A stretch of DNA of 48,688 bases from the NCBI GenBank assembly GCA_041589615.1, contig JBFHVK010000001.1, positions 1 to 48,688 on the forward strand. The letters run 5' to 3'. Below the pieces are notes generated by a model that saw nothing but the letters and a program-made list of their open reading frames with translations, did no database searches and was not told the origin of the DNA. The position numbers and the translations under genes are program-made. Below, one piece after another: positions 1 to 48,688 of the stretch (its first letter is position 1; every line of letters starts with the position of its first letter). Source of the DNA: Gammaproteobacteria bacterium (lineage in GTDB: Bacteria; Pseudomonadota; Gammaproteobacteria; SZUA-229).

Positions 1-141
1 AAACAAGGAGGTGACATTGAGGGCAGCATAACGCAAATCATCGGTGCGTAATGCTTGCATGTCGGCGCTGCTAATAGCATTACTAATAGCAGCCACAATA
101 GCCTTGGCATCCCCAGCCCGCAGGCAGAACAAGTTGCCCTC
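1..141. repeat. Terminal overlap, copy 1: nt 1-141 are identical to nt 48548-48688 (circular-assembly closure)
   Basis: Compared base by base: both copies read aaacaaggaggtgacattgag...caggcagaacaagttgccctc. The overlap lies inside one continuous minus-strand reading frame, so it is a linearisation artefact rather than a genetic element. Confidence 0.95.
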
Positions 142-525
142 ACGCCCATCACCACACATCTTAGTGAGCATGTTTTCAAAAGCATAGTAGAGGACAATAA
201 GATTGAACAAGGTCTTATAATCTTCGTTCTGCATGTTCACATGCACATGAATACCAGCCCTCACTGACTCATCAATGACAGCCTCATTCATACGCATTGT
301 TCTGTAGATCGAAGTGATTCGATGCACAGCCTCTTTAAGCTCAACTGGGCCATCGAATACATACTCTGCATTCTCCTCCCCACGTAGGCTCCCATCATGC
401 TCACGGCGGAACCCAATATCTCTTACATCATGGGGGAGATTACGTCCCTCTACTTCCAACTCAAACCCAATATCTTTGTTGGTGTAGTAACGTGGCTGTA
501 CATTGAAAAGGTCTCTAATTAGCAT
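1..525 (-). CDS. Amidoligase_2-type (glutamine-synthetase-fold) carboxylate-amine ligase, 5' part; the gene continues through the junction into 48182..48547 (296 aa in total)
   Basis: ATG at 525-523 is preceded by GGAGGAGAG. Translation is MLIRDLFNVQPRYYTNKDIGFELEVEGRNLPHDVRDIGFRREHDGSLRGEENAEYVF...GIHVHVNM. The 525 nt are exactly 175 codons and the frame is continuous with ORF 48182..48679 through the overlap. The start overlaps the stop of 515..1069. Confidence 0.85.
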   Translation of the reverse strand, partial: MLIRDLFNVQPRYYTNKDIGFELEVEGRNLPHDVRDIGFRREHDGSLRGEENAEYVFDGPVELKEAVHRITSIYRTMRMNEAVIDESVRAGIHVHVNMQNEDYKTLFNLIVLYYAFENMLTKMCGDGREGNLFCLRAGDAKAIVAAISNAISSADMQALRTDDLRYAALNVTSLF

Positions 526-1069
526 AACTCTCCTCCAAATCTTCTTTCAAGTACTGTTTGTTTGGTAACAACTTAACAGCACCGTCAACAATCTCGCCAA
601 CAATACCTGACAGGAAGTTATGCACTTTCCCATCACCAGTAAGTGCCCATTCCTTCCCCCAAGCCACAGACCTTTTCTTGCCTAGGCACTCTAGGGCTTC
701 TTTGAATGTTGGGTAGTCTGACAACAGAGACTTGGCAACAATCCTGCTATTGAAAGGGACAACACGGCCAACTTCAATACTGGTGATTAGGGTATTGTCC
801 CCACGTAGTCCTTGCTTCCAACGGCGAACAGGTTTACGCATAACACTGTACACACGACCATTGTTATTACAGAAGCCAGTGCATAGGTTATCAAACTCAA
901 GTAAGTTTGCTGGGATAATTGCCTCTTCACCTTTTTCCAGATCAAGTATAGTGGCAGTGCCGTCCATACGTACCTGTAGCACAAAGACTGGGGAGTTGTT
1001 AGCAATGACAATACTGTCAGACAGTCTGTAGTTGGCGTACTCCCAATCTTCACCATAAGACCAACCCAT
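515..1069 (-). CDS. Hypothetical protein (184 aa), member of the amidoligase operon
   Basis: Long ORF whose start shares nt 1069 with the upstream stop (TAATG) and whose stop overlaps the downstream ATG. I recognise no motif. Confidence 0.7.
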   Translation of the reverse strand: MGWSYGEDWEYANYRLSDSIVIANNSPVFVLQVRMDGTATILDLEKGEEAIIPANLLEFDNLCTGFCNNNGRVYSVMRKPVRRWKQGLRGDNTLITSIEVGRVVPFNSRIVAKSLLSDYPTFKEALECLGKKRSVAWGKEWALTGDGKVHNFLSGIVGEIVDGAVKLLPNKQYLKEDLEESYAN

Positions 1070-1890
1070 TACACATACTCCTCTATTAAGCCAAAGTCAT
1101 CTAACCGACGATGTACCCTGGCCTCAAATGGCAACCCCTTAGAGGCATTGTCCAACACCCTTTTAACATCTTGAGGGTTAAGAAAACCATAAGAGTTAAG
1201 TGTCAACCCATCTTTAGCCCTGTTAAGCACACGCATTACTTGGCGGTACACCCAGCCCATGATTTTCTCATCCTTGAGCCAAGCATTGCTTAATACCCGG
1301 TACTCAAGTCCATAAGGCTTATAACGGAAGCTACCAAACGAACCATACAAAGCACGACGACGTTGGTCATTGTCATAATGGTTGAATCGAGCACCTAAAC
1401 AAATGTCCAAAGTTTTTACAAGTTCAATGCAGGTTTCACGGTGCCTGATATCATCAGCACTTGCGCCATTAGTCCAGCCAATGTGGATGTGACCAGCACC
1501 AGTACGGAATGGGGCTTGTGCATTGGGTCGAGGGTTCTCCTTGCCTTTATCCCAAGCATTAAAGTCAGGCTCACAGCCCAGCTCCAAAGCTTCTGGTGGC
1601 ATAGCAGCCATAATCTCTGCCGAGAAATCAGCAGATGGGGAGGCATCAAGCTCATACCCCGGCACCATGTCCTTAAGAATGGACATAACAGTTTTGATAT
1701 TGCCAATGAATTCTTCTTCATTCTTGGCAGGGTCGATGTTAAATTCAAGGGCCATGCCATCCACTTGGACAGCACCCTTATCAACCTTGAATGGATTCTT
1801 CTTATCCCCTTGGATTGCACCATGTGCTGATACAAAACCATTGGGGCCACGCATAAATACTTCTGGGTCACAACCGATAAGGAAGGTCAT
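1069..1890 (-). CDS. phiEco32-like COOH-NH2 ligase type 2 (GCS/glutamine-synthetase-like amidoligase)
   Basis: 273 aa beginning MTFLIGCDPEVF, with GMALEFNI and TGAGHIHIGW segments, recognised from memory as the phage COOH-NH2_lig family. SD AGGTGA lies 5 nt upstream. Confidence 0.8.
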   Translation of the reverse strand: MTFLIGCDPEVFMRGPNGFVSAHGAIQGDKKNPFKVDKGAVQVDGMALEFNIDPAKNEEEFIGNIKTVMSILKDMVPGYELDASPSADFSAEIMAAMPPEALELGCEPDFNAWDKGKENPRPNAQAPFRTGAGHIHIGWTNGASADDIRHRETCIELVKTLDICLGARFNHYDNDQRRRALYGSFGSFRYKPYGLEYRVLSNAWLKDEKIMGWVYRQVMRVLNRAKDGLTLNSYGFLNPQDVKRVLDNASKGLPFEARVHRRLDDFGLIEEYV

Positions 1891-1900
1891 TTATATTCAC

Positions 1901-3163
1901 CTAGTTCAAAACAAGTTGTTGGATGTAGGGTTTAACATTGTCTTCTTCTGCACATGACTTACAGAGGAAGTTCTCTTTATCAAACCAGATAATGTCATCA
2001 GCGTCTGCTGCATCTGGTGCTTGTGTGCACCAACAGCAACCACAAGAGGTAGCAAGATTGAATTGCTCCTCTGTCACCATCTCCCCGTCATAAATCTTGA
2101 AAAGCTCTGGCCCTTCTTCTTCAATCACTTCGATGATTGACCTCAAATCTACAGTCAGATACCCACCGCCAACATAATTGCAAGACTTAGCAGTTACTTT
2201 GAACAGGTTAGGGGAGGTAAGAAGATTTTCCCATTGCTCGCTGTTTTCTTGGGCAAAGATACGGAACATAATGTCCCGATCATTTTCCAAAGTAGCTTCA
2301 ACATAAGCTTGAGAATATTGACCAGTAGGCTTAACCTCTCGAACTACCTCTACCAAAGAAGGTACGCCCACATACTGCGATAGCTCTTTTGAGGACTTTT
2401 TTGGGAAGTTACTCACGTTACTGGTATTGGTATTGGCGGAGTAGGTCACGTATTTATAACCTTCCAACACCTGCTTATCAAACTCAATCATAGGACAGTT
2501 AGCGGCCAGTGCTTGAGGAACATTAAACTTGTAATACTCCATAGGAGCCACTTGCTTAATGTCACCATGCTTCAAGCCAACATTGGCTAAAGCTACGATA
2601 AGCATCCAATCCTCAGAGGCCCAGAACAATGTCTTACCGTCATTACTGCGCGTCATGTACATGGGTCGCTCAGCATTACGGGTGATGTTGAGGGTAGCAT
2701 CACGCTTGTCATACCAAGTGAGAGCAAAAGCACCATTAACCTTTTTGATGGTATCTTCAACGGTGTTCTTGTTCATGTGGTGATACAAGGCTTCACTGTC
2801 CACATCGAATTGGAGGTAATCATCCAATTGGTACATAGAGCGGAGAGTGCCATTATGGGCACCAATAATATGCTCAAACTCAAACGGGTGGGCATTGATC
2901 TTATTGATAGCACCTTGAGTGGCATAACGGTTATGCCCCAGCAGCAGGTTATGGCTGCCTTGTATGAACTTGTCCCACTTCTTACTGTCGAACAATTCCC
3001 AAGGCGTACCAACCTCCTTAATTACCTTGGCTTCCCCTTTCTGATTGACGCTGAGCACACCTGTGCTGTGCGGGCCACGTACTGTATCCAATTGAAGGAG
3101 GTATTTAAATGCCTTCTCCTCTTGAAAAGTAATACGCCCCATTACCCCTACCAAACCACACAT
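1901..3163 (-). CDS. Class II (Ntn) glutamine amidotransferase with a Cys-rich C-terminal domain
   Basis: N-terminus MCGLVG (Cys2 nucleophile), GHNRYATQG and AHNGTL motifs typical of PurF/AsnB/GlmS-type GATase domains. C-terminus carries SCGCCWC...CKSC, a possible zinc ribbon. Confidence 0.85.
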   Translation of the reverse strand: MCGLVGVMGRITFQEEKAFKYLLQLDTVRGPHSTGVLSVNQKGEAKVIKEVGTPWELFDSKKWDKFIQGSHNLLLGHNRYATQGAINKINAHPFEFEHIIGAHNGTLRSMYQLDDYLQFDVDSEALYHHMNKNTVEDTIKKVNGAFALTWYDKRDATLNITRNAERPMYMTRSNDGKTLFWASEDWMLIVALANVGLKHGDIKQVAPMEYYKFNVPQALAANCPMIEFDKQVLEGYKYVTYSANTNTSNVSNFPKKSSKELSQYVGVPSLVEVVREVKPTGQYSQAYVEATLENDRDIMFRIFAQENSEQWENLLTSPNLFKVTAKSCNYVGGGYLTVDLRSIIEVIEEEGPELFKIYDGEMVTEEQFNLATSCGCCWCTQAPDAADADDIIWFDKENFLCKSCAEEDNVKPYIQQLVLN

Positions 3164-3558
3164 TATTTAACCTCCTTCTTTACAAAACGACCTTTTGCAT
3201 CACGCGCAGGAGGGTCAAGGTTGATTGTTGACAGCTTGCCTACCTTACCAAGTGGACAGTAAGCCAGAATAAGTTGTGTTTCTGGGTGCTTGCCCTTGTA
3301 CATAGGTGGGGATAAGGTAAATCCACACTCAAGCAGCGCTTTGATGCCCACTTTTTGTTGGTTATTTACAGTGGCGACAAGAACTGCCAGTCCATCATCA
3401 ATTGCTTCTTGCTTTCTCATCTCAATAGCATTCTTGAGCTGTTGCAAATCAACTGTATTATTGTTGAGAGGACGTATGCCGTACTCCGCAGTTTTTGTTT
3501 GACCAAACCCCGCAATAATGTTAGCAGAGCAGCAACCCGGAAAATCAAAAACCTTCAT
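3163..3558 (-). CDS. Hypothetical protein (131 aa), possibly a small GNAT-like fold
   Basis: ORF with SD GGAGG upstream of the ATG at 3558. The stop shares nt 3163 with the next start (TAATG). The segment NNQQKVGIKALLECGF weakly resembles GNAT motif A. Confidence 0.65.
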   Translation of the reverse strand: MKVFDFPGCCSANIIAGFGQTKTAEYGIRPLNNNTVDLQQLKNAIEMRKQEAIDDGLAVLVATVNNQQKVGIKALLECGFTLSPPMYKGKHPETQLILAYCPLGKVGKLSTINLDPPARDAKGRFVKKEVK

Positions 3559-3576
3559 TTGAAACCTCCAAAAAAT

Positions 3577-3605
3577 TTTCTAACCTAAATTAAGACCTTT
3601 AGCAC
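3577..3605 (-). promoter_or_regulatory. Conserved promoter-like motif, copy A (minus strand GTGCTA-N17-TAGAAA)
   Basis: Minus strand reads GGGGTGCTAAAGGTCTTAATTTAGGTTAGAAAATTTTTT. It sits in the only sizeable gap (3559..3636) of the amidoligase operon. Copies at 6888..6916 and 31757..31785 have the same hexamers and the same 17-nt spacer. Confidence 0.55.
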
Positions 3606-3636
3606 CCCATAACGGGGACTGCCCAATAATGGTCTA

Positions 3637-4260
3637 TTACAATGAAATCAGCTTATCAACACACTCAAAGAAATACTTACGGCAATCATCCAAGTGTGCG
3701 CCATTAAACTCTGGGTGTGGTTGGAAACAAAGGGACTTGCTGAATGGGTACAGTACTACCTCAACATCGTAGTAACTTTCACACCAATCATCGTCACCTA
3801 AGTGCTCACGATCTTTAGACAGCTCACCACCATGTGCTAAGATAATGGCTTTACCCAAATCAGGACGCATCATCTGGTGGTGTGTGGATGAAACCTCGCC
3901 CAAGTAGGTACTATCACTGTAACTGTACAGTGGGTGAGTGCCACCAATAGCATGTTTATCTACATTCTGCCACATCTTACCGCCAGACATGACATTAAGG
4001 AACTGACCACCACGACAAATGCCTACCATTGGCTTCTTGCTAGCAAGGCATTGTTCAAACACCTCAGCTTCTGCTAAGTCACGGCGCAGGTTGCACATAG
4101 TTGTGCGGTGCTTTTCTTCCCCATACATCACAGGGTCAACATCTTCCCCACCAGTGAACTGTACAATGTCGGCCTCTTCAACACTGCTCACAATTTCATG
4201 GCCAGCATTTGTCCATAATTTTGAATAGGCATAAGAGCCATCAACAATATAAACTTTCAT
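3637..4260 (-). CDS. Class I glutamine amidotransferase-like / peptidase C26 gamma-glutamyl hydrolase
   Basis: 207 aa with MVGICRGGQFLNV (nucleophile elbow) and STHHQM, as in PuuD/C26-type enzymes. Confidence 0.8.
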   Translation of the reverse strand: MKVYIVDGSYAYSKLWTNAGHEIVSSVEEADIVQFTGGEDVDPVMYGEEKHRTTMCNLRRDLAEAEVFEQCLASKKPMVGICRGGQFLNVMSGGKMWQNVDKHAIGGTHPLYSYSDSTYLGEVSSTHHQMMRPDLGKAIILAHGGELSKDREHLGDDDWCESYYDVEVVLYPFSKSLCFQPHPEFNGAHLDDCRKYFFECVDKLISL

Positions 4261-5111
4261 AGTACACCCATCTCCTTAAGTTTTTCTTTAACACCCAAGA
4301 TGCCCTTGGGGTTTGGGTTAAAGATTCCAATACGGCGTGCAACATCTTGCATGGCATATTTAAATACACCATCAAACTTCAATGGCTGGTTTCCTGCTAG
4401 GTCATCTAAGAGACTACCATCAGCGTCACCCTCGATAAACATTTTTGAGTAGCCTTGGTAGACACGAAACTCATTGTAAGGTTTGTCAAAACGAACTTTA
4501 ACCGGAGTATTGTTTATAAAGTTATCAAACACCTTTCCGGTTAGGAAGCCCCCATCAAATGCCATGTGCCCACCGCCGTAATAAATGTGGAACGTCCCAT
4601 CTACAAGCTTGACATTATGCGCCAATACAAAAGCAACATGCTTATTGATACGATACTTACGGACAAGTTCATACCAACAATCAAGTTGATAAGGGAACTC
4701 CCATAACAAGCGAGTGGCAACACATGCTCCACCTAGATAAGTACCTGCCACGTTGGGATTCATAATGGCATAGCCATGCTTGAGCATGGTCTTACCTACC
4801 TTACTAATGAAGGCATCTTTGTAAGGGCTTTCTTTAGCCAGCCAGCTGAGATAAAGGGCACATTTATCAGGCCAGTCTTCTTTGCCCCTTAATTCCTCTC
4901 CGTTATAATCTTCTTCATAGCGAACCTGAAAGAAGTTGACTATTAACTTGAGTGGTGTGCCACCACGATGACCATTTAACCCAGCATGACATGCTGTATT
5001 AGGTGAGGCTTTGAACTTATCGTCCTCACTGATAGAGCCCCAGTAGGCACATTGATCAGTAGCAACTTTAACATCCTGATTTTTCAGCACTTTGTTCACA
5101 TAGCTAAACAT
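4257..5111 (-). CDS. Hypothetical protein (284 aa), distal member of the amidoligase operon
   Basis: Long ORF with a 4-nt ATGA overlap to 3637..4260. No motif recognised. Confidence 0.7.
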   Translation of the reverse strand: MFSYVNKVLKNQDVKVATDQCAYWGSISEDDKFKASPNTACHAGLNGHRGGTPLKLIVNFFQVRYEEDYNGEELRGKEDWPDKCALYLSWLAKESPYKDAFISKVGKTMLKHGYAIMNPNVAGTYLGGACVATRLLWEFPYQLDCWYELVRKYRINKHVAFVLAHNVKLVDGTFHIYYGGGHMAFDGGFLTGKVFDNFINNTPVKVRFDKPYNEFRVYQGYSKMFIEGDADGSLLDDLAGNQPLKFDGVFKYAMQDVARRIGIFNPNPKGILGVKEKLKEMGVL

Positions 5112-5614: not shown

Positions 5615-5629
5615 TTTAATGTGTGAAAT

Positions 5630-5705
5630 TGGTACGGCCAGTAGGATTTGAACCTACGACCTGCCCCTTAGGAGGGGGCTGCTCTATCCGCTGAGCTATG
5701 ACCGT
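5630..5705 (-). tRNA. tRNA-Arg (anticodon CCU, reads AGG), CCA encoded
   Basis: Folded by hand as ACGGTCA-TA-GCTC-AGCGGATA-GAGC-A-GCCCC-CTCCTAA-GGGGC-AGGTC-GTAGG-TTCAAAT-CCTAC-TGGCCGT-A-CCA. This gives 76 nt, a 7-bp acceptor stem with one G.U pair, and U8 present. Confidence 0.9.
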
Positions 5706-5719
5706 ATGTTTGAATGGCT

Positions 5720-5815
5720 CTGTAAGCCCCTGTAAGGGGCATAGGAGAAGAGATAGGCATATAACCTGCCCTACCCTACACACTCACCCTTACAAGAGCT
5801 TACAGAGGCTTACAG
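5720..5815. repeat. Inter-tRNA spacer with 17-nt inverted arms (CTGTAAGCCCCTGTAAG / CTTACAGAGGCTTACAG) and 10-bp-phased CTTACAG units
   Basis: Arms at 5720..5736 and 5799..5815 are complementary at 16 of 17 positions. An inner hairpin CCCC-TGTAA-GGGG lies at 5727..5739. A paralogous degenerate copy lies at 6790..6886. Confidence 0.75.
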
Positions 5816-5816
5816 T

Positions 5817-5893
5817 TGGTTCCCGGCACAGGACTTGAACCTGTAACCTATAGCTTAGAAGGCTATTGCTCTATCCAATTGAGCTAGTCGGGA
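5817..5893 (-). tRNA. tRNA-Arg (anticodon UCU, reads AGA), CCA encoded
   Basis: Folded by hand as TCCCGAC-TA-GCTC-AATTGGATA-GAGC-A-ATAGC-CTTCTAA-GCTAT-AGGTT-ACAGG-TTCAAGT-CCTGT-GCCGGGA-A-CCA. This gives 77 nt with one A.C mismatch at acceptor pair 6:67. Confidence 0.85.
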
Positions 5894-6886: not shown

Positions 6887-6887
6887 T

Positions 6888-6916
6888 TTTCTAATGTAAA
6901 TTCAGCCCACTAGCAC
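6888..6916 (-). promoter_or_regulatory. Conserved promoter-like motif, copy B (GTGCTA-N17-TAGAAA)
   Basis: Minus strand reads GGGGTGCTAGTGGGCTGAATTTACATTAGAAAAATTT, lying downstream of 6948..7085 and upstream of 6539..6787. Confidence 0.55.
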
Positions 6917-6947
6917 CCCGTAACTGGCCTGCTTCAGAATGGAGCTA

Positions 6948-8439: not shown

Positions 8440-9136
8440 CGCTGGCTATGGTTGGCCAGACTTAGCAGGGCCAGTGCCTAAGCACTAACAACTACTCCCC
8501 AGTTATCCTCTAGCTATCCACGGTTGCTAATCGCTTCAATCTAGCCATTGTATGGGCACTAGGTAGGCCCCCTAACTACTCTTCTTCCCCTAGCAGGCTG
8601 GGGTAATAACATAGGCCGTATTTAGCCGAGGACTACAAACTGTCCTGAAGTCATCAAACCTTTCGTTTAGCCACCATCCCAAAGGGACAGCTATCAAACT
8701 ACTTAGCCCAACGCCTAACACTCTCTGTTAAGTACAGTTATCGACCGTTGCCGCTAGTCAGTAGGCCCGTTTGCCTTTGACGCTTACCATTCTACAGCAA
8801 TCTAACTTATTGTCAACCTAGCATCTTGTGTTAGACATTGGCCCTAAGGCTTACCCTAACGTGCAATGGCTGGCGTGTACCGTTATCCGCCTGACTAAGC
8901 CCCCTAGGCTTAAGCCGTCACACTTGACGCTTGATTGACATACTACACAAGGTAGTTAAGTTAGTCAACCACCTGTTAGCTGTCTGGCTAGGCCATGTCG
9001 CTAATCAGTGAGGCCATCCTACATAGACGGGATAAGGTAGTCAACACTGGTAATTTATACAGGCATTGTTAGGCGTATATATAGAAGCACTCGCGTACGC
9101 ACAGACAATACCCACTATACATACTCGCCCCGTCAG

Positions 9137-31734: not shown

Positions 31735-31756
31735 TGTTTACAATCCTTGAAAAATT

Positions 31757-31785
31757 TTTCTAGCAGAAATTACGTCCTTTAGCAC
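31757..31785 (-). promoter_or_regulatory. Conserved promoter-like motif, copy C (GTGCTA-N17-TAGAAA), orphaned between a gene end and the terminator
   Basis: Minus strand reads GTGGGTGCTAAAGGACGTAATTTCTGCTAGAAAAATTTTTC. It starts 3 nt after the stop of 31789..31992. Confidence 0.5.
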
Positions 31786-31788
31786 CCA

Positions 31789-34422: not shown

Positions 34423-34565
34423 TCCTCCTCCTCATCTTCATCCACTACCTTGTAGGCAATCACCATCATAGGCAAGAGCTCAAACCGTCCGAGCAAGTAG
34501 ATACAGCCAGCAGTGACAACCCCAGTGAAGAAACATTCAGCCAGTGCATTAAAAGCGCTTATCAT
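34419..34565 (-). CDS. Small membrane protein (48 aa), not in the supplied ORF track
   Basis: Translated by hand as MISAFNALAECFFTGVVTAGCIYLLGRFELLPMMVIAYKVVDEDEEEE. It has an ATGA overlap with the thioredoxin start. Confidence 0.4.
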   Translation of the reverse strand: MISAFNALAECFFTGVVTAGCIYLLGRFELLPMMVIAYKVVDEDEEEE

Positions 34566-35028
34566 AATCACCCTCCTCCCACTTCTCAATAATTCGTTTA
34601 CCTGAATGTATTGAACCTATTGTAGACCTAGGAGCCCCAAAAAGGATTGCCAGATCAACTTGCCTCATCTTTCCTTTCATATCCAAGATGTACTGAGCCT
34701 CTTCATCAGAAATGTACATCCTGCCCCTAGTAGGTTTCCTACCTAGGATATCAAATGCGTGCTTATTATTCTCCGAATCTGTCATCCACTCAAGGTTTGA
34801 CAGGGAGTTATTTAACTTGTTGCCATCCTTGTGGTTCACTGTCCTTTTTCCGTAAGGGTTTGGGATATACCTCTTCGCCAATTCCTTGTGCAATAAGACT
34901 GTCCCACTGCTCCCGGCGACGAAGGTTAGGTAGCCGTTGCTTGCCACGGCTGGTTTAATCTCTTTGTAAGGGGAGAAGACCCTCCCCTCCTCTGTGATAG
35001 TGTAATCATCAAGAGTCAACTTTCGCAT
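34549..35028 (-). CDS. Free-standing HNH homing endonuclease
   Basis: 159 aa with VNHKDGNKLNNSLSNLEW (HNH_3-like) and a C-terminal helix-turn-helix-like tail. Confidence 0.8.
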   Translation of the reverse strand: MRKLTLDDYTITEEGRVFSPYKEIKPAVASNGYLTFVAGSSGTVLLHKELAKRYIPNPYGKRTVNHKDGNKLNNSLSNLEWMTDSENNKHAFDILGRKPTRGRMYISDEEAQYILDMKGKMRQVDLAILFGAPRSTIGSIHSGKRIIEKWEEGDYDKRF

Positions 35029-35861: not shown

Positions 35862-36498
35862 GTTCAGTCAAAGCCTCCCAACAGGTAGGGAACAAAGGTT
35901 TAATGATTTCTTCCAACTTCTTAGCAAACTCTTGTGCTTCCACTTGAGAGCCATTACCAATACGCAATCGCCATACATGGAAGAATGCTAGGAGATTGCC
36001 AGTCCACACATAGTCCACCATCATTGATTGTGGGAGTAGCATACGAGCTTGCTCAGGTGCTACACCTCCACGAATCATATCATCATAGAAGGTGATTGCA
36101 GCCCACAGGAACTTATCATACTTGTCAGCATAAGCAGAGGATGATGGATGTTTATCACCACTCCCTTGCTTTATCCCGTCACTAGGGCGACTACGCCAAC
36201 AATCAGGAACAAAGAATTCAATCCCACTGTCAACGTAGCGACGACTAACTTCATTCCAACTAAGTCCAGCTTGGTGCTTACCGAGTTGCCTAGCCAAGAA
36301 CACAGGCACCTTACAACGGATGGATAGTTGAGTATGCCTAAAAGGACTGTTATGTTCGTGAGCAGCAAGGTAATCAATAAGACGAGCATCTTTCTGATCG
36401 AACTCCTCTTTCCATTTATTAAAGGACACACGGGCGACATTAGCCACCCGCAGGTCATCCCCCATGTGGTCAATATATTCTATTGAGATATTACTCAT
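35845..36498 (-). CDS. thyX: ThyX-like flavin-dependent thymidylate synthase with a degenerate signature
   Basis: 217 aa that aligns by eye to ThyX (SPFRH..VPVFLARQL..SWNEVSRRY). The canonical RHR is KHQ and the HAQ region reads GSQ. Confidence 0.75.
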   Translation of the reverse strand: MSNISIEYIDHMGDDLRVANVARVSFNKWKEEFDQKDARLIDYLAAHEHNSPFRHTQLSIRCKVPVFLARQLGKHQAGLSWNEVSRRYVDSGIEFFVPDCWRSRPSDGIKQGSGDKHPSSSAYADKYDKFLWAAITFYDDMIRGGVAPEQARMLLPQSMMVDYVWTGNLLAFFHVWRLRIGNGSQVEAQEFAKKLEEIIKPLFPTCWEALTEHAKVH

Positions 36499-36803
36499 TC
36501 ACTGTCCCTGTAAGTTGTTGGTGTGCCTTCGTAGTCATTCAGTACAGACTCAGGCAGGTCATCTACCCAAACCTCCACCTCAATACCAAGACCCCTCATA
36601 TACTCCCGCTTAGCTTTATGCTCAGTGAAGTATACATCAAAACCCATGCGTTTAAGGAAACTCAAATCCTCTGGGTAAGTGGTACTCTCCCTTCCTGTTA
36701 CCACCACTACCTTGTGGCCACGTGATTCCATAAGCTTCATTATCGAACAAAAACCATTAGCATCCTTACTAATGGTATTGTCGAAATCAAATGCAATAAT
36801 CAT
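36495..36803 (-). CDS. HAD-superfamily phosphatase (nucleotidase-like)
   Basis: 102 aa with IIAFDFDNT (DxDxT motif I), VVVVTGR and WVDD. Confidence 0.7.
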   Translation of the reverse strand: MIIAFDFDNTISKDANGFCSIMKLMESRGHKVVVVTGRESTTYPEDLSFLKRMGFDVYFTEHKAKREYMRGLGIEVEVWVDDLPESVLNDYEGTPTTYRDSE

Positions 36804-37570
36804 TGTGCATTTACAAGCAATGCTCGCCTCTTGTCTTTGTCATACTCATTGTATCGTGTACGTGCCCAACCACCACAACTACCACAACGATAGCGTTGGA
36901 ACTTACTTACGTTGGTGTGGTAATAACCACGCTTAACCATGTGAACACTGCCACACTTAGGGCACACAGGAACATCAGCCTCAGCGAACACACCAAGGTT
37001 AGGGTGGTTCTTAATGTAAGGCAACATCTTCTTATACAACTCACGAGTGGCTAAGGTGTCCCTTACGTTATACACCTTCATCTCTTCCCATGCATCAGGG
37101 TTCCCTTTAAGGCATTCTTGCCATAACAGGAAACCGGGGAACTTTGCATGTGCAAGCTTCTGGTAGTTACATTGGAAGAAGTCAAGCATGTACTCTAGCG
37201 AATAGCTTTCAAGCTTGAAGTTCTTTCTAGCAACTTGCATAGTATCTACTACACGATAGGGTGATGGTGGCTTGATGCCATGCTTAACAGCAAAAGCGTT
37301 AATAGTACCAATGTCAAACCTCTCTACGTTCTGGCCAATTACCACATCAGCCTCATCAAGAACCTGGATAAGATCACGTGTGATCTCTGCCTCAGCATCT
37401 AGCTTTCGGTTCTCTGCATAGATTACTTCATCTTCATTATCAAACACAGCAGCGAATGACATGATGGAGCCATGATTCTGAATCTGTTTAGCCCCAATAT
37501 TCTCTTTGAACATTCGCCATACATAAGCAAGCTTAGGTGCTGTTTCAATATCAAGAGTTACTATTCGCAT
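36800..37570 (-). CDS. DnaQ/PolB-exo-like 3'-5' exonuclease with a C-terminal zinc ribbon
   Basis: I prefer the ATG at 37570 (MRIVTLDIETAP), preceded by GAAGGAAGGA. It has an ExoI DIET motif and CPKCGS...CGSCGG. Confidence 0.75.
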   Translation of the reverse strand: MRIVTLDIETAPKLAYVWRMFKENIGAKQIQNHGSIMSFAAVFDNEDEVIYAENRKLDAEAEITRDLIQVLDEADVVIGQNVERFDIGTINAFAVKHGIKPPSPYRVVDTMQVARKNFKLESYSLEYMLDFFQCNYQKLAHAKFPGFLLWQECLKGNPDAWEEMKVYNVRDTLATRELYKKMLPYIKNHPNLGVFAEADVPVCPKCGSVHMVKRGYYHTNVSKFQRYRCGSCGGWARTRYNEYDKDKRRALLVNAQ

Positions 37571-37892
37571 TAATTCCTTCCTTCGATCTATCATCCAACT
37601 CTGGATGTGTTGTAATCATCTCTGCAAGGAATAAGGCATTGCAAAGAATGTGGTAGGCATGATGTAGTTTTGACTCATCATCAATGTCTTCCCCTGATAG
37701 GTAGTAGCCCATGTGCCTGAGAAGGCTGTCACAAATCTCAGTGTGCTTAAGACCCTTACGCCAGTTACCCCTGTCGTACTTGGCCTTACCAAAGCTAAGC
37801 ACTTTGGCACACCCACTAAGGGCATGCCGTGCTTCTAAGATCATTGACAGCTCAGGCTTACCAGTATTATACCTAGAGCCTAGTGCAGTCAT
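37551..37892 (-). CDS. All-alpha MazG-like dNTP diphosphohydrolase (dATP/dGTP-PPase N-terminal-domain-like)
   Basis: 113 aa with YNTGKPELSMI..AKVLSFGKAKYDRGNWRKG..LLRHM..DDESKLHHAYHILCNALFL, a pattern I recall from the DUF5664/MazZ-like family. Confidence 0.65.
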   Translation of the reverse strand: MTALGSRYNTGKPELSMILEARHALSGCAKVLSFGKAKYDRGNWRKGLKHTEICDSLLRHMGYYLSGEDIDDESKLHHAYHILCNALFLAEMITTHPELDDRSKEGINANSNS

Positions 37893-38122
37893 TACTGGGT
37901 CTCCACCATCTTGTTAATAGCAGCTCGTGTACGTTCATAACCTTGAGTTTTGATAAGCTCAAACAGGGCGTACACATCGGCCTTGTCTTCTTGTGAGAAC
38001 TGATTCAAATACTTCTTAGTAGCCAGTGCCCCTTGCTGTGATAGCAAGTTAAACGACATAGCTGCTCGGTTCCAAGTACGCAAAGGCTTGGACAATACTT
38101 CATTGAAAGTGGGGTTAGCCAT
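37892..38122 (-). CDS. Hypothetical protein (76 aa)
   Basis: ORF with 1-nt junctions on both sides. Confidence 0.55.
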   Translation of the reverse strand: MANPTFNEVLSKPLRTWNRAAMSFNLLSQQGALATKKYLNQFSQEDKADVYALFELIKTQGYERTRAAINKMVETQ

Positions 38123-38535
38123 TATTCTTTTTCCTTTTCTCTTCTCTGTTTTGCCAAGGCAGTTTCCTCAGCAGTCTTCACGTCGTGACATTTCTTACAC
38201 AGCAGTTGTAAGTTGTCTATCTCACAGAAGAGCCCCTCAATGATATCATCCCAGTTGGTGAATCCAATCTCTGGGTCTACTGTCGGAGCTATGTGGTCTA
38301 CAAAGATGTTCTTAACACGCTTCTTCTTATCTTCATCATAGATAGTTGGGGGCACTATTTCCCCGCAACATTCGCATTTATACTCACCTCTGCCCACATG
38401 TGCATTCTTACGGCATTGTTGGATTGGTGCCCACTTCCTAGTAGCGCTACGAAGGTTGCCCTTAATAAAGCTACGGAAGCGAGCCTCAGTCCATAGACCC
38501 CCGCAACGGGTCTTCTCTCCTGAAGGTCTAGCCAT
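38122..38535 (-). CDS. HNH endonuclease
   Basis: 137 aa with CECCGE..VDHIAP...LQLLCKKCHDVKT. Confidence 0.8.
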   Translation of the reverse strand: MARPSGEKTRCGGLWTEARFRSFIKGNLRSATRKWAPIQQCRKNAHVGRGEYKCECCGEIVPPTIYDEDKKKRVKNIFVDHIAPTVDPEIGFTNWDDIIEGLFCEIDNLQLLCKKCHDVKTAEETALAKQRREKEKE

Positions 38536-40921: not shown

Positions 40922-41379
40922 TTAGTGGATATCGGCGTAGTTGTCGCCAAACTCTACAGAACATTCCAACTCCCTGTTGAGTTGTAGTTCCTCATTGACA
41001 AGCTTAATGGCTCTCGCCACATGCTTCTTCATTCTTTCTCTGTTACCTTTCTTAATCAAGGCAATCCATTCATCGTGCATTTGTCCAATGATTGGAGGGC
41101 CACCATCCATAACATGTGACAACCACCTATCAAAGCAATACACACCAGTACCTTGGTTGAGGGTAGAGAACCTATCCTTCTCATACCGAAGGCTATACCA
41201 GAACTTACTAACAGGATTGAATAACCACTTTTGGCCTCCAACTACTTTAACAATTTGCTCTTCTGCAATGGCCTTGACAGACCAATTACGTTTCCAGTAT
41301 GTCTCTACTAGCTCTTCTCCTTTATGCAAAGGGACACCAGCAGACCTAGCTACAGTGGCTCCACCTGCCCCGTATACAC
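40922..41379 (-). CDS. Family A DNA polymerase, exon 2 (rest of motif B, and motif C QMHDE)
   Basis: The open frame upstream of the listed TTG start reads ..GVYGAGGATVARSAGVPLHKGEEL.. and contains IIGQMHDEW. Confidence 0.75.
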
Positions 41380-42041
41380 CGTTGTGTTCAGGGAGGGTCG
41401 TTAATCCTCCCCCGCTTTATTCAAGCTGCTGCATGTCCCCATGCAGACCAGACTATATCATCACCTATTGGTGTTGCGCGCTTCGAGCCACTTGACCCTA
41501 CTCCTTTCGGATAGTCGTTGCACTTTCTAAGTACTCAATCGCCGTTTTAATTCTGTTAGTGTCATCCTTCAGTAGACCTAATGCTCTGTTGCAATTATGA
41601 CACAACAGACCTCTCACTGCACCAGTGGAGTGGCAATGATCCACATTCAAAGGAGACCTAACATGTTTATTCATATCAAACCCAACTTCCTTACAGATGG
41701 CACATAAGTTATTCTGTGCCTCTAATAACCACAACACTTCCCAGTATTGTATCTTATAAGACTTTCTGTAGTAGTTGTCAATTTCAACATACCCCTTACA
41801 CCTATCTGAACAATAGTGATGGGAGGGTGCATGAGGGGTAAAAATATTACCACACAGTTTACAAGGCTTGTCTTTGAAGCTGCCTTGTGGGTATTTACTT
41901 GGCGATGCAGTCATCTCTGACTGCGGGGCATTGCTCAATCTAATCATAATACTCCTTGTTTAGATTGAGTACTTAGCTTAGCTCAGGATTGTCTGTTCTA
42001 GATGTCCCCTGAGTTCACGCAATTTTACATGCGCCTAATTA
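41380..42041 (-). mobile_element. Candidate group I intron (662 nt) carrying a homing-endonuclease ORF
   Basis: Exon end AUGCGU pairs with the internal guide GCGCAU 8 nt downstream, giving a U.G pair at the splice site. The intron ends in G. Joining T + GT gives Cys and restores KQVNYACVYGAG. The flanks contain hairpins CUCAGG...CCUGAG, CUGCAUG-GGGA-CAUGCAG and GGGAGG...CCUCCC. Confidence 0.65.
41498..41947 (-). CDS. Endonuclease VII / HNH-family homing endonuclease (intron ORF)
   Basis: 149 aa with SD AAGGAG and CAICK...LNVDHCHSTGAVRGLLCHNCNRALG, the Endonuclease_7 signature. Confidence 0.85.
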   Translation of the reverse strand: MIRLSNAPQSEMTASPSKYPQGSFKDKPCKLCGNIFTPHAPSHHYCSDRCKGYVEIDNYYRKSYKIQYWEVLWLLEAQNNLCAICKEVGFDMNKHVRSPLNVDHCHSTGAVRGLLCHNCNRALGLLKDDTNRIKTAIEYLESATTIRKE

Positions 42042-43467
42042 ACGCATAATTAACTTGCTTATATACATGGCGGATGCCTTTGATAAGTTTCATTTCCTCA
42101 TCCTGTAGCTCTTCAGCCTTATAGGCCAACACCTTCTCAGGTGTAAGTGCCTTGGCGAACTCTGCAAGGTTTAAGTGAGGGTCGAAGTCAGGAGTCATCA
42201 TCTCCCTGACATAATCAGGGTCATGCTTCCACATGTAATGCTGCTTAGTCCTGTCTTCGAGGCTGCTCATATCGCTACCACAAAGCTCATAACCTTCAGG
42301 AGCAACCAGACAACCACGGATATCACTACCATAAGGCTTATCAATGCCTGGAAGGTTAACCACCACCCGGTGCTTGAAGCGTAGCGTGTTGGTGAGTCCT
42401 TGCACTTCTGCTCGGACATAACCTTCCTCGTCTACATTCTCCAGAAAACCGTTCAGCACAGATATACGGTGAGTAAGGATAGTTAAGCCTTCTAACGGCT
42501 CAAGCCCCGGCTCTTTGGCAAACAGCTCTTTAACACTCCTGCATAGCCCCGGCCCTTTGCTCTTATCCTGTTGAATCTGTGGGATTTTCCTTACGTCTCC
42601 AGTCTCCTTATTCCTGTCATACTTGAAGGTTTCAGGCTCCCAACCCAAGGAATCCAACCAACTCTTTAGTTGAGGGATGGAGTTAGGGTTAGGTTCTTCC
42701 CAACTCTTTACATACTCAACAACTCCTTCGTAATCTTCTGGTAGGTTTTGCTCTTTAAGTAATGTAAACCAAGACTCACCAGCCACGGTAAGCTTCTTCA
42801 ACTTACCTTTCAGGTACATCTTATTAGGTTTGTGCTTCTTAGCCATCTTTGGCACAGGAGGCATAGCTGACTTAAGCTCTTCTACCTTCTGTTCTTTTTC
42901 AGCAGACAACCTATCAAACACTTCCCTGCATCTATCTACATCAAGCTTCCATCTATGTTGTTCTTGAAGCTGGGCACATTTTAATTTGAAAGAGAGGTAG
43001 TCAATGAGACGTAATGCCTCTTCCTCGCTGCCGTATAACTTAAGCAGCTTATCCCACATCTTCTTCCAAAGAAGCCTGTTGATCTCTACGTCAGTCTCAC
43101 AACGGTGAATGTAATCCTTAACGTCAAGATTTTCCCAGTCATCAATCTTAGGTTTCTCTACCCCTAACTCTTCCCCCCATTGCTCTAGTCCGTGCATTAA
43201 CCTGTCAGGGTACAAGTACCAAGAGAGGGCCAGTGTATCTACTAGCCTAGCCTCCACTTTAATATCTAACAATCTTTCGATTGCTGGGATATCATACCTG
43301 ATGATGTTGTGACCAACCAATATCTTAGCCTTCCCCATGTACTTACGGATGTTGGCATAGTTAGAGGTTGACTTTTTCTTCTTGTCCCCATCAACAGACA
43401 CAGACAAGCAATGGATTTTTGTAGGGGAGAGTCCGTCAGTTTCAATGTCGAACACATCTCCAATCAT
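42042..43467 (-). CDS. Family A DNA polymerase, exon 1 (3'-5' exonuclease, motif A, first half of motif B)
   Basis: It starts MIGDVFDIETDGL (ExoI), has CGSDMSSLEDR (motif A), and ends ..RHVYKQVNYA followed by an in-intron stop after 5 more codons. Confidence 0.85.
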
Positions 43468-46466: not shown

Positions 46467-46829
46467 TTAACTTAATTCTTTAAGTCTATCGAACAGCTCA
46501 GAGGCTTCCTTGTCATTCTCTGCTAAGTATTTGTAGATGGCCATTTGCTCCACCTCTTTCTTCTTAGCTTCAAGCTTTTCAATGATGGACTTCTTCAGCT
46601 TTTCCTTCTCGATACGTGCTAAGTAATCCTTGTCATCAATCTTGCTTACTATCCATTTGGTTGCTATGTTCCTTGCACCTTCAGTTAAGGAATCAACAGT
46701 AACAGCAACATAGCCGTTACTAGGACTATCAACAATTACCTTCTCACCGAAACTTACGTCGAGGTCAGTTAGGTAATGATATACCTTAGGATTGCAATCA
46801 AAAGTAACACCAATAGTTTTTACGCTCAT
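46467..46829 (-). CDS. Hypothetical protein (120 aa)
   Basis: ORF with an ATGA overlap to the MazG gene and a coiled-coil C-terminus. Confidence 0.6.
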   Translation of the reverse strand: MSVKTIGVTFDCNPKVYHYLTDLDVSFGEKVIVDSPSNGYVAVTVDSLTEGARNIATKWIVSKIDDKDYLARIEKEKLKKSIIEKLEAKKKEVEQMAIYKYLAENDKEASELFDRLKELS

Positions 46830-47317
46830 TTCAAATCCTCTTCTTTAATAAACACACCACCTTCCACCATCTTGCCCTCCCTATTTTTAATCTTATTCCA
46901 AGCAAGTTCCATACATTCCTCTTGGTCAATACCTTCTGAGATTAAGAATAGTTTTAATTTATCATAGCACCTCAATAGGAAGTATGGATCATTGTGTGAC
47001 AAGGATGAGGTGACACACACCCCATTAAGGTAATACTGGGAGCTCTTGTGAATTAACTCATTGCCAAAGACAGGCTCAAGCAATACCTTAAGCACACTGT
47101 CAGACATTTCACTGCAAATAGTCAACAGCGCAAGCACATCACCAATCTCCATCTTAAGCTTGTCAACATTACCTTTTAGGTATTCATCAACAACCTCACC
47201 CACTTCAGTGAATAGCTTGAGTACTTGTGTCTGGTAATTGGAATGCTCAAGGATACCACGATCAGTGGCCCATTGCAATACATTCTTTTTGAAATCAACG
47301 GTAGTCATCAACATCAC
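46826..47317 (-). CDS. mazG: MazG-type nucleoside triphosphate pyrophosphohydrolase
   Basis: The segment LFTEVGEVVDEY...KMEIGDVLALLTI is the EExxE...ExxD pattern of all-alpha NTP-PPases. The start (GTG 47317, ATG 47314 or ATG 47308) overlaps the ATP-grasp stop. Confidence 0.75.
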   Translation of the reverse strand: MMLMTTVDFKKNVLQWATDRGILEHSNYQTQVLKLFTEVGEVVDEYLKGNVDKLKMEIGDVLALLTICSEMSDSVLKVLLEPVFGNELIHKSSQYYLNGVCVTSSLSHNDPYFLLRCYDKLKLFLISEGIDQEECMELAWNKIKNREGKMVEGGVFIKEEDLK

Positions 47318-48182
47318 CTAGTACAACATTAGCATCATTATTAAATGCAATATTGTTGAAGTTTGCTTGCAACCAATCCTTAGGAATATCTCTTGGTTTT
47401 TGCATTACTAGCACAGCTTCTGGAGGGGCCAGATACTCGGCAATAGCATTAGCATAACTATCAACAGTACTGCCTTCTAAGCCCGGTGCTGTGTTAACTT
47501 CCAGCACATAGGCTTGCCCACGCTTCTCGTTGAAGATAACATCCACTGCACCAAACACCAAACCTAATGCTTCTACAGCTTGGATAGCGTTGTAGATGAC
47601 AGAACGTGGCACTTCACCAAGGGCTTCCCCTTTAGCAAACACAAAACCATTGGCGTAGCTCCGTACCTTCCAATTGATCTGGTCATCAGGTACATCCATA
47701 CGTCGTGCCTTACGACGTACATCAATCACCTTACCATTGAAAACATGCACACGATACTCAGACTTCTTAGGGATATACATTGTGTACAATGGGGCATCAA
47801 CAAGTTGGCCACCCTCAGTTGCAATGACAATACCCTCCCCTGAATGGCCATTTAACTTCTGGCGGCAAACAACTGCACAGCCACCACGTAGCCACACCTC
47901 GGCTATCAAGGGGTCAGTTGCATAGTCTGGGATTGCCACATCACCTGCTCCCAAAGTATCTAAGCACACAAGCTTATCACTTGCCTTGCCCACTGCCTCT
48001 GGGGAGTTGATTACCTTGGCACCAATGACATTCTCAGGGAGGTTACTAGAGCCCCAGTTAATCACTGTCTTTTCTTCAGTGCCCACAAACTTACTGTTCT
48101 TATGGCGGATTAACTTGGCACCGATAGCTTCTGCCAAAACTTTAGCTGAGGCTGAGCCTGCTTTATACGGATAGATAAACAT
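47295..48182 (-). CDS. ATP-grasp (RimK-like) carboxylate-amine ligase
   Basis: 295 aa with KLNGHSGEGI, EYRVHVFNGKVIDV and AVDVIF...YVLEVNTAPGL, typical ATP-grasp strands. Confidence 0.85.
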   Translation of the reverse strand: MFIYPYKAGSASAKVLAEAIGAKLIRHKNSKFVGTEEKTVINWGSSNLPENVIGAKVINSPEAVGKASDKLVCLDTLGAGDVAIPDYATDPLIAEVWLRGGCAVVCRQKLNGHSGEGIVIATEGGQLVDAPLYTMYIPKKSEYRVHVFNGKVIDVRRKARRMDVPDDQINWKVRSYANGFVFAKGEALGEVPRSVIYNAIQAVEALGLVFGAVDVIFNEKRGQAYVLEVNTAPGLEGSTVDSYANAIAEYLAPPEAVLVMQKPRDIPKDWLQANFNNIAFNNDANVVLGDVDDYR

Positions 48183-48688
48183 TAGAAGTCCTCCAAAGGT
48201 TCTTCATAAACAACCCCATCACGCTTGGGGAATTTTAAACCACCAATTTCAATGTACTGGAATAGCTTGTCCCAATCTGCTGCATAAGCAATGTGCTGGG
48301 CCAGACGCACCCCTTTCATTACATCCTTCTCCCATCCATCATACAGTTTGAGGTACTTAAACATCTGCCCAAACACACGTTGAGTGAAACCTTCAATCTC
48401 GTTAACTGAGATGTGCTCAACAACCTCAGTTGGGTTATTGAAAGTACGGGCAGCCTCACGTAATTGATGTACCAGCTTTACCCAACGAACAACCTCCATC
48501 ACCTTAGGTGTGGTACGCATGGCACGGAACTCCACGGAACCATACTTAAACAAGGAGGTGACATTGAGGGCAGCATAACGCAAATCATCGGTGCGTAATG
48601 CTTGCATGTCGGCGCTGCTAATAGCATTACTAATAGCAGCCACAATAGCCTTGGCATCCCCAGCCCGCAGGCAGAACAAGTTGCCCTC
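48182..48688 (-). CDS. Amidoligase_2-type ligase, 3' part (continuation of 1..525 through the junction)
   Basis: 507 nt are exactly 169 codons in frame with 1..525 after removing the 141-nt overlap. The segment VEFRAMRTT is typical of the family. The stop shares nt 48182 with the ATP-grasp ATG (TAATG). Confidence 0.85.
   Translation of the reverse strand, partial: EGNLFCLRAGDAKAIVAAISNAISSADMQALRTDDLRYAALNVTSLFKYGSVEFRAMRTTPKVMEVVRWVKLVHQLREAARTFNNPTEVVEHISVNEIEGFTQRVFGQMFKYLKLYDGWEKDVMKGVRLAQHIAYAADWDKLFQYIEIGGLKFPKRDGVVYEEPLEDF
48548..48688. repeat. Terminal overlap, copy 2 (identical to 1..141)
   Basis: See copy 1. Confidence 0.95.

Follow-up and report, generated by a model that had tools for sequence, protein, structure and literature searches.

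What do phages build with a run of genes for enzymes that join and handle amide bonds, and on which molecules do these enzymes act? This question is raised by contig JBFHVK010000001.1 (GenBank assembly GCA_041589615.1, filed under Gammaproteobacteria bacterium), a stretch of 48,688 nucleotides that is analysed here as a whole and called the window. Its list of open reading frames (ORFs) contains nine consecutive minus-strand ORFs that reach from 46826 through the contig ends to 5111. Their tight packing, pointed out in a preliminary description of the window, is borne out by overlaps of 1 to 23 nt between neighbouring ORFs. Two gaps interrupt the run, one of 10 nt at 1891–1900 and one of 78 nt at 3559–3636; the latter had been called the sole real gap, and it is the only sizeable one. 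In transcription order the genes are X284, C26, s131, GAT2, CNL, Y184, AL2, an ATP-grasp ligase gene (AGr) and MazG. This run holds a phage-specific multi-enzyme cassette that, with a probability of about 55%, would carry out the stepwise assembly and trimming of a glutamate-containing, gamma-glutamyl amide-linked adduct. Gene content, conservation, synteny, catalytic motifs and fold predictions are established here, and the chemical steps and the target are inferred. Stepwise amide assembly with trimming had been suggested before, and it is still a reasonable reading, as the family assignments hold.

The run crosses the ends of the window. Comparison of these ends showed that positions 1–141 are an exact direct repeat of 48548–48688. 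This repeat results from an overlap in the assembly of a circular (or terminally redundant) genome; since the first and last 141 nt are identical, the phage genome is circular and its true length is 48,547 bp. The duplicate splits the Amidoligase_2 gene AL2, the 5′ part of which lies at 1–525 and the 3′ part at 48182–48688, where 48548–48688 repeats 1–141. Plain joining of the ends would add a spurious duplication of 47 aa, and the junction-spanning gene encodes 296 aa once the duplicate is removed.

Enzymes and orphan proteins of the cassette

Profile searches of Pfam, NCBIfam and PHROG were combined with a PDB sequence search, and curated family cut-offs were applied. The families that had been named by eye, namely MazG, ATP-grasp, Amidoligase_2, COOH-NH2 ligase, N-terminal nucleophile (Ntn) glutamine amidotransferase and Peptidase_C26, were all recovered with Pfam and PHROG profiles. 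CNL (1069–1890, 273 aa; like the other eight genes, on the minus strand) belongs to the phiEco32-type COOH-NH2 ligases, which are GCS2/YbdK-like carboxylate-amine ligases. It scores 33.7 bits against PF14395 (cut-off 25) and matches PHROG 3815 with E=9e-83. The repaired 296-aa AL2 protein, a glutamine-synthetase-like ligase, reaches 41.3 bits against Amidoligase_2, PF12224 (cut-off 22), and E=3e-73 against PHROG 7469. The third ligase, the RimK-like ATP-grasp protein AGr (47295–48182, 295 aa), obtains 22 bits with Pfam RimK (cut-off 21), 25 bits with R2K_2, just under the cut-off of 26.2, and E=1e-86 with PHROG 2599. Among solved sequences, AGr is nearest to 7qys and 7qyr, both RimK-type alpha-L-glutamate ligases (E about 1e-3), and its best NCBIfam matches, MptN and rimK_fam, are both below cut-off.

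The two remaining core enzymes handle glutamine or gamma-glutamyl amides, judging by their families. In GAT2 (1901–3163, 420 aa), an Ntn (class II) glutaminase domain formed by residues 1 to about 240 is followed by a variable C-terminal region. The protein scores 60.6 bits with Pfam GATase_6 and E=9e-123 with PHROG 18128, and its only PDB sequence matches are the glutaminase domains of GlmS and PurF, which cover the first ~240 residues. Its N-terminus is MCG, and Cys2 is conserved together with the GHNR, AHPF, HNG and DSE motifs. The Cys-rich tail that had been noticed consists of two CxxC pairs, at 376/379 and 401/404, which are conserved in at least 50% of the sequences and are predicted to form a Zn-ribbon. 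C26 (3637–4260, 207 aa) has the Peptidase_C26, or class I glutamine-amidotransferase, fold (PF07722, 73.9 bits; PHROG 7218, E=3e-51) and is a predicted gamma-glutamyl-amide hydrolase, with a conserved GiCRG nucleophile elbow (Cys) and HPE motif. Its nearest solved sequences are 3fij and the “probable glutamine amidotransferase” 7d4r. The best NCBIfam matches of C26 are a gamma-glutamyl-CDP-amidate hydrolase and PuuD, both far below their cut-offs; with 22.7 bits against the 266 required for a PuuD equivalog, the likeness is at the level of the fold only. In the same way, the match of AL2 to the YbdK family falls short of the GshA/YbdK threshold (19.5 bits versus 176), and NCBIfam gave no GshB match. 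By alignment, the catalytic motifs are intact in all five cassette enzymes, and the five families of a phiEco32-type cassette are present here in its conserved gene order. Three ATP-dependent ligases and two glutamine- or gamma-glutamyl-handling enzymes are thus encoded, as had been proposed. The expression “double amidotransferase” used for the latter pair may be a misnomer, as GAT2 and C26 could equally both be gamma-glutamyl-amide hydrolases. The last gene, MazG (46826–47317, 163 aa), adjoins the cassette and encodes a MazG-type nucleoside triphosphate (NTP) pyrophosphohydrolase (Pfam MazG, 32.8 bits, cut-off 22; PHROG 1992, E=4e-33).

X284, Y184 and s131 had no Pfam, NCBIfam or PDB sequence match, and a word-indexed protein search with Y184, X284 and the X284 alignment returned almost only self-matches. 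X284 (4257–5111, 284 aa), the first cassette gene in this lineage, represents a phage-only family with 518 clusters at E<=1e-3 among 1.84 billion representatives. In a 124-sequence alignment, Cys41, Arg134, Glu138 and His182 are invariant. An AlphaFold2 model, for which the alignment came from a search of the representative library, is confident (predicted local distance difference test, pLDDT, 83.7; predicted template modelling score, pTM, 0.85). Foldseek found no PDB fold for this model (best E=4.3), and in BFVD it matched uncharacterised phage proteins only. These included proteins of Aeromonas, Proteus, Cronobacter (two paralogues) and Escherichia Kuravirus-type phages. The ~320-aa proteins encoded upstream of CNL in other phages were compared with X284 by hhalign, which gave probabilities of 78% for gp089 and 65% for gp090 of Kuravirus SU10 and below 3% for gp51 and gp52 of Bruynoghevirus DL54. 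Taken together, the BFVD fold matches and the marginal hhalign scores suggest that the Kuravirus-like upstream proteins share the X284 fold, and homology of the upstream proteins of Kuravirus-like, Aeromonas and Proteus phages to X284 is probable on the basis of this fold similarity. The Bruynoghevirus upstream proteins stay unlinked to X284. No further Pfam domains are present in longer homologues of X284 or in the longer forms that the enzymes take in Kuravirus, Bruynoghevirus and Vibrio phages.

The Y184 gene (515–1069, 184 aa) overlaps both of its neighbours, CNL and AL2, and the only profile matching its product is PHROG 11055. Its relationship to gp087 of Kuravirus SU10, encoded at the same position, is clear (hhalign probability 99.9%, E=7e-31). 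Homologues of Y184 were gathered by exact cluster look-up and aligned; the conserved residues are a Gly, an Asn, two Arg and a Tyr-Pro pair, a set that does not look catalytic. The AlphaFold2 model (pLDDT 90.3, pTM 0.83) consists mostly of short beta-strands with a helix at the end, and its best PDB folds in Foldseek are Spt5 KOW6, the kin17 tandem SH3-like domain and Tudor domains. Y184 is accordingly modelled as tandem SH3/KOW-like beta-barrels, and it may be inferred to act as a binding or scaffolding subunit. A Pup- or LysW-like tag was also considered for Y184 and was ruled out because its C-terminus is not conserved. The third orphan, s131 (3163–3558, 131 aa), is an accessory protein outside the conserved core. 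It matches PHROG 8299 only and has conserved Cys9-Cys10, Gln68 and Gly79; an acetyltransferase of the GNAT type had been suspected, and no match supports it.

Distribution and conserved core

Relatives of CNL were found in 318 phage records, whose hosts include Pseudomonas, Escherichia, Vibrio, Aeromonas and Proteus and which also include a crAss-like phage, and in at least 561 IMG/VR stretches. The cassette thereby extends to 318 or more sequenced phage isolates and to over 560 contigs of IMG/VR. Among 185,579 bacterial and archaeal species genomes (one genome per species), CNL occurs in only 55 loci, nearly all of them in metagenome-assembled genomes (MAGs), and most of the longer contigs have the size of a phage genome, about 45–55 kb. 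This near-absence from cellular genomes makes the cassette phage-restricted. The loci in the species set span many phyla, including Patescibacteria, Saccharibacteria and one Woesearchaeota archaeon, and are most simply explained as phage contigs mis-binned into MAGs. For the phage in the window, no relative at the DNA level was found among 50,697 phage records. Its large terminase shows 78% identity to the terminase of the PA11/O4 group (Zobellviridae, Paundecimvirus), and its cassette proteins are ~30–60% identical to those of the nearest isolates, which are of the same group. On these comparisons, it is a new, fairly distant relative of PA11-like Zobellviridae phages.

The composition of the cassette was determined by fetching 168 loci and searching their ORFs with iterated hidden Markov models. 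A locus was regarded as complete if it was unique and extended for 7 kb or more to each side of CNL, and 75 loci did so. GAT2, CNL, AL2 and the ATP-grasp ligase are each present in all 75. Y184 is present in 73, and in 73 the genes CNL, Y184 and AL2 are contiguous and in the same order. Across lineages, GAT2 and the ATP-grasp gene lie alongside these three, and the position of GAT2 varies. The enzymes that could cleave a gamma-glutamyl group behave differently from this fixed set. C26 alone was found in 42 of the complete loci, gamma-glutamyl cyclotransferase (GGCT) alone in 24, both in 5 and neither in 4, so that 71 of 75 have one or the other. The two folds, which are unrelated, appear from this pattern to be largely interchangeable, and the cassette seems to require one gamma-glutamyl-cleaving activity, whichever of them provides it. 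X284 relatives occur in 45/75 loci, or in 58/75 when the Kuravirus and Bruynoghevirus proteins in the equivalent upstream position are counted. The commonest order is X284-C26-GAT2-CNL-Y184-AL2-AGr-primase/helicase. The core lies upstream of the primase/helicase gene in Zobellviridae, Kuravirus, Bruynoghevirus and Vibrio phages, and the annotated genomes of Kuravirus SU10, Bruynoghevirus DL54 and Vibrio phage WD615 share this arrangement. A locus search with a single protein, gp49 of DL54, yielded near-identical contigs only.

This comparison of gene neighbourhoods separates the conserved core from local additions. At this position a MazG homologue is found in only 1 of the 75 complete loci, or in 3 when all 153 unique loci are counted. 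s131 is found in 10 of 75, and in phage DL54 it lies outside the cassette, elsewhere in the early region. MazG and s131 are therefore lineage-specific additions, and MazG has no part in the cassette. The real unit consists of a universal core of five genes, to which one gamma-glutamyl-cleaving enzyme, from one fold or the other, and in most cases a protein of the X284 type are added. The discrete nine-gene operon of the preliminary description has to be given up in favour of six to seven conserved core genes plus two lineage-specific inserts, in a run that has no boundaries. Many Zobellviridae-like contigs have a second ATP-grasp gene between C26 and GAT2, and some carry both C26 and GGCT, so that the ligase complement varies by lineage.

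Proposed chemistry and its alternatives

The near-exclusive alternation of C26 and GGCT suggests that one step of the pathway removes a gamma-glutamyl group, and from such a removal it follows that one of the ligases must make a gamma-glutamyl amide. Around this reasoning, a working sequence of events can be proposed for the cassette, which is expressed together with early and replication genes. CNL and AL2 would each use ATP to activate a carboxylate and couple it to an amine, and at least one of the resulting bonds would be a gamma-glutamyl amide. Y184, translationally coupled to CNL and AL2, could hold the substrate or scaffold both ligases. The RimK-like ATP-grasp enzyme would attach glutamate, or an amino acid like it, through an alpha linkage. 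The Ntn glutaminase might supply ammonia for the amidation of an activated carboxylate or, like EgtC, hydrolyse a gamma-glutamyl amide. Peptidase_C26 would then take off the gamma-glutamyl handle, as gamma-glutamyl cyclotransferase would in other lineages, and X284, with its Cys/His/Arg/Glu set, may be an extra thiol-type enzyme. The pairing of these folds with gamma-glutamyl or peptide-tag chemistry is familiar from PuuA/PuuD, GshA/GshB with EgtC, RimK and PafA/Dop.

As for the substrate, a slight preference goes to a protein, another macromolecule or a carrier-bound compound over a free metabolite, with DNA the least likely of these. Y184, the putative Zn-ribbon tail of GAT2 and the parallel missense changes reported in the amidoligase and the amidotransferase of an evolved Pseudomonas phage lean towards a macromolecular or carrier-bound substrate and a role in host interaction. 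The cassette proteins of SU10 have been detected by mass spectrometry. A bolder version, to be held only tentatively, is a phage system for tagging macromolecules (similar to pupylation or RimK) or a new nucleic-acid hypermodification, in which Y184 presents the target, X284 catalyses a new reaction and a glutamate-derived mark results. If this were true, a covalent glutamate-derived mark on a host or phage macromolecule would be used for host takeover or immune evasion.

Several points weigh against the assembly of a gamma-glutamyl adduct on a macromolecule or carrier. Individual enzymes are assigned to steps by analogy only, and all NCBIfam scores are far below the cut-offs. The families concerned are no less characteristic of small-molecule pathways than of protein modification. 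The structural models of X284 and Y184 were confident; the similarity of Y184 to SH3/KOW folds is weak (E 0.014–0.1, with a template modelling score no higher than 0.41), and X284 has no counterpart in the PDB. Y184 also has no conserved C-terminal residue of the kind that marks a carrier or a tag, and X284 is absent or undetected in 17 of the 75 complete loci. In addition, full-text literature searches found no experimental assignment of a product or target.

One alternative is a soluble metabolite, such as a glutathione-like compound, a gamma-glutamyl-amine or polyamine conjugate or a glutamylated cofactor, made for host reprogramming, a cell-wall change or superinfection exclusion. The combination of a GCS2-type ligase with an ATP-grasp enzyme mirrors GshA/GshB, that of a glutamine-synthetase-like ligase with C26 mirrors PuuA/PuuD, MptN and RimK are the best matches of the ATP-grasp protein, and the cell-wall and superinfection idea is repeated in the literature. 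Such a product is nevertheless rather doubtful, as a universal beta-barrel protein coupled to two ligases and a GAT2 tail of Zn-ribbon type fit macromolecular recognition better, the cassette contains no transporter or export gene, and the similarity scores that recall these pathways are all far below the family cut-offs. Metabolism enters in another way in an eLife paper of 2024, where the same genes are read as serving nitrogen and amino-acid metabolism, so that the cassette would be a set of host-derived auxiliary metabolic genes that boost the infected cell, a role put forward for Phage-ZRK32. The restriction of the cassette to phages speaks against it: CNL is confined to those 55 loci, nearly all in MAGs, the genes form a fixed multi-gene unit with the phage-only X284 and Y184, and the carriers are virulent podophages. 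Host-derived nitrogen-metabolism genes were rejected on the ground that the cassette is essentially absent from cellular genomes, and this explanation is very improbable.

The idea that a side chain derived from an amino acid is built by the cassette on a nucleobase or dNTP and shields phage DNA from restriction requires a longer discussion, as the preliminary description had pointed in this direction. The cassette always adjoins replication genes, and Lee et al. describe Amidoligase and glutamine-amidotransferase domains that co-occur with thymidine-hypermodification genes in viral contigs. The Gordonclarkvirinae, which carry the cassette, are unexpectedly resistant to restriction–modification (RM) systems according to a cited paper. 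Among the folds that Y184 resembles are KOW and Tudor domains, which in some cases bind nucleic acids, and the best NCBIfam match of C26, although far below cut-off, is a hydrolase of a nucleotide-linked gamma-glutamyl group. The earlier pointer, however, had rested on MazG as the leader of the operon; on the minus strand transcription runs from X284 down to MazG, which is thus the last and 3′-most gene, and it occupies this position in only that one of the 75 complete loci. ThyX, which had been called atypical, is a full-length, typical Thy1 protein (140 bits over the full profile) and the only gene product of thymidylate-synthase type found. Among the early and replication ORFs scanned, a set that leaves out the plus-strand structural genes, there was no hydroxymethylase, TET/JBP protein, 5-HMUDK-like kinase, aGPT-Pplase or DpdA-like enzyme, and an entry enzyme for base modification is thus missing from this set.

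Restriction sites in the phage genomes point in the same direction. Over the whole window (GC content 45%), six-base palindromes occur at 0.65 of the expected frequency; 26 of the 64 have z-scores below -2 and none above +2. GATC is found 65 times where 157 would be expected, and 16 six-base palindromes are absent, including GGATCC, CTGCAG, GTCGAC and CTCGAG. Every other cassette-bearing phage sampled, Kuravirus included, has a ratio of 0.63–0.82. This depletion suggests exposure to restriction, and palindrome avoidance could itself account for the RM resistance. Moreover, a member of the cassette-bearing LUZ24-like group, phage tf, encodes the amidoligase and the glutamine amidotransferase, and its DNA, once digested with RsaI, HpaI, EcoRV, SmaI and HaeIII, was cloned. 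None of the palindrome, digestion and gene-scan tests would reveal a modification that is partial or depends on context; on balance, a DNA or nucleotide product is unlikely, and a gamma-glutamyl adduct on a macromolecule or carrier is preferred.

Genomic setting and known systems

The nine genes are part of an early/replication block and not a discrete operon, as the run continues past both of its ends. Upstream it is overlapped by a 61-aa ORF, and downstream of MazG a 120-aa gene, a 68-aa gene, a primase/helicase gene, a gene for a DUF551 protein and a sigma factor gene follow without a break. The whole leftward minus-strand block extends from ~8.2 kb through the junction to ~32 kb (roughly 25 kb) and also encodes endonuclease VII, split PolA/exonuclease genes, ThyX, PhoH, a DUF550-type dNTP diphosphohydrolase and a class II ribonucleotide reductase; the cassette takes up about 10% of the 48.5-kb genome. 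Three tandem sigma-70-like promoters lie on the minus strand at 8789–9044, with TTGACA or TTGACT followed by TAGAAT, TAGTAT or TAGGAT. They stand at the start of the leftward block and probably serve as the early promoters from which the host RNA polymerase transcribes the unit that contains the cassette.

A second kind of regulatory site is suggested by the 78-nt gap upstream of s131. A promoter-like motif had been seen there; a generic sigma-70 scan detects no promoter in the gap, which does contain a recurrent 32-nt motif, GGGTGCTARWGGNCNKAATTTNNNNTAGAAAA (3576–3607, minus strand), a candidate phage-specific promoter or regulatory site. Three copies are present in the window, all on the minus strand and between ORFs, at 3576–3607, 6887–6918 and 31756–31787, and none in any of the 223 related loci fetched. 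As the pattern was derived from its own three sites, a shuffle expectation of zero is not an independent test. The motif could be a promoter for the phage sigma factor, and the third copy faces the 3′ end of late plus-strand genes, which makes its role uncertain.

Just upstream of the cassette, two minus-strand tRNA-Arg genes are located at 5630–5705 and 5817–5893, with the anticodons CCT and TCT, and an Rfam scan of the window returned these two tRNAs and nothing else. The 55-aa ORF at 5616–5783, which overlaps one of these genes, is probably not a true gene; in phage O4, too, the equivalent region contains a tRNA-Arg. Among the replication genes, HNH endonuclease genes are found at 34549–35028, 38122–38535, 40922–41329 and 42025–43467, and DNA polymerase A looks fragmented, with a 135-aa ORF holding only its C-terminal end. 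This suggests interruptions by homing endonucleases or introns, as described for LUZ24-like phages. The minus-strand gene at 37551–37892 contains the N-terminal domain of a DUF550-type dATP/dGTP diphosphohydrolase (PF18909, E=1e-26). This family accompanies PurZ in phages with 2-aminoadenine genomes, and no PurZ-like gene turned up among the ORFs scanned here. In PHROG, the 102-aa protein encoded at 36495–36803 on the minus strand is weakly similar to phosphoheptose isomerase and polynucleotide kinase families, and it has no Pfam match at E<=0.01; it is probably the protein that had been taken for a HAD phosphatase.

The neighbourhood of phiEco32-type amidoligases was reportedly predicted by comparative genomics in 2009 by Iyer, Abhiman, Burroughs and Aravind. 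As far as they could be consulted, papers published between 2012 and 2025 either give the genes in lists or restate the proposals of Iyer et al., which are cell-wall modification, superinfection exclusion, secondary metabolites and peptide tags. The statement in the preliminary description that the neighbourhood is known from comparative genomics alone, with neither product nor target, is in keeping with a literature that is still speculative through 2025. The carriers include phage groups that are employed or investigated in therapy against P. aeruginosa and E. coli (Bruynoghevirus, Paundecimvirus and Kuravirus). Identification of the product would give functions to two Pfam families and two unannotated families, one of them lacking a structural relative in the PDB, and might explain the restriction resistance of the Gordonclarkvirinae. 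The present comparison sharpens the question by defining the core genes, the interchange of C26 and GGCT, the universal presence of Y184 and the irrelevance of MazG.

The closest known systems can be compared with the cassette at different levels. The thymidine-hypermodification clusters of Lee et al. (2018, 2021) are likewise biosynthetic in style and situated near replication genes; unlike here, they have a dUMP hydroxymethylase or TET/JBP, 5-HMUDK and aGPT-Pplase, none of which was found in the scanned ORFs. RimK/S6, PafA/Dop and LysX/LysW resemble the cassette in combining RimK-family ATP-grasp enzymes with carboxylate-amine ligases similar to glutamate-cysteine ligase or glutamine synthetase and with amidohydrolases. 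They differ from it in that the cassette has no identified tag or carrier with a conserved C-terminal Glu or Gln and does not reach the family cut-offs. With the E. coli Puu pathway it shares, at the fold level, a glutamine-synthetase-like ligase and a Peptidase_C26 hydrolase that removes a gamma-glutamyl protecting group, whereas the oxidase and dehydrogenase partners of that pathway are absent and further ligases, Y184 and X284 are added. The agreement is closest with the phiEco32-type neighbourhood annotated in Paundecimvirus (PA11, O4, TC6), Citrovirus, Kuravirus (phiEco32, SU10) and Bruynoghevirus (LUZ24, DL54, tf). COOH-NH2_lig, Amidoligase_2, the RimK-like ATP-grasp ligase, the Ntn amidotransferase and a gamma-glutamyl-cleaving enzyme are all present here. 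The cassette is thus of a known and widespread, functionally uncharacterised kind, of which the window contains a divergent but ordinary further copy. Its gene order and its position upstream of the primase/helicase gene are those of phages O4 and Klyazma; unlike in these relatives, a 131-aa gene is inserted and MazG is appended, and C26 is found where Kuravirus and Bruynoghevirus carry GGCT.

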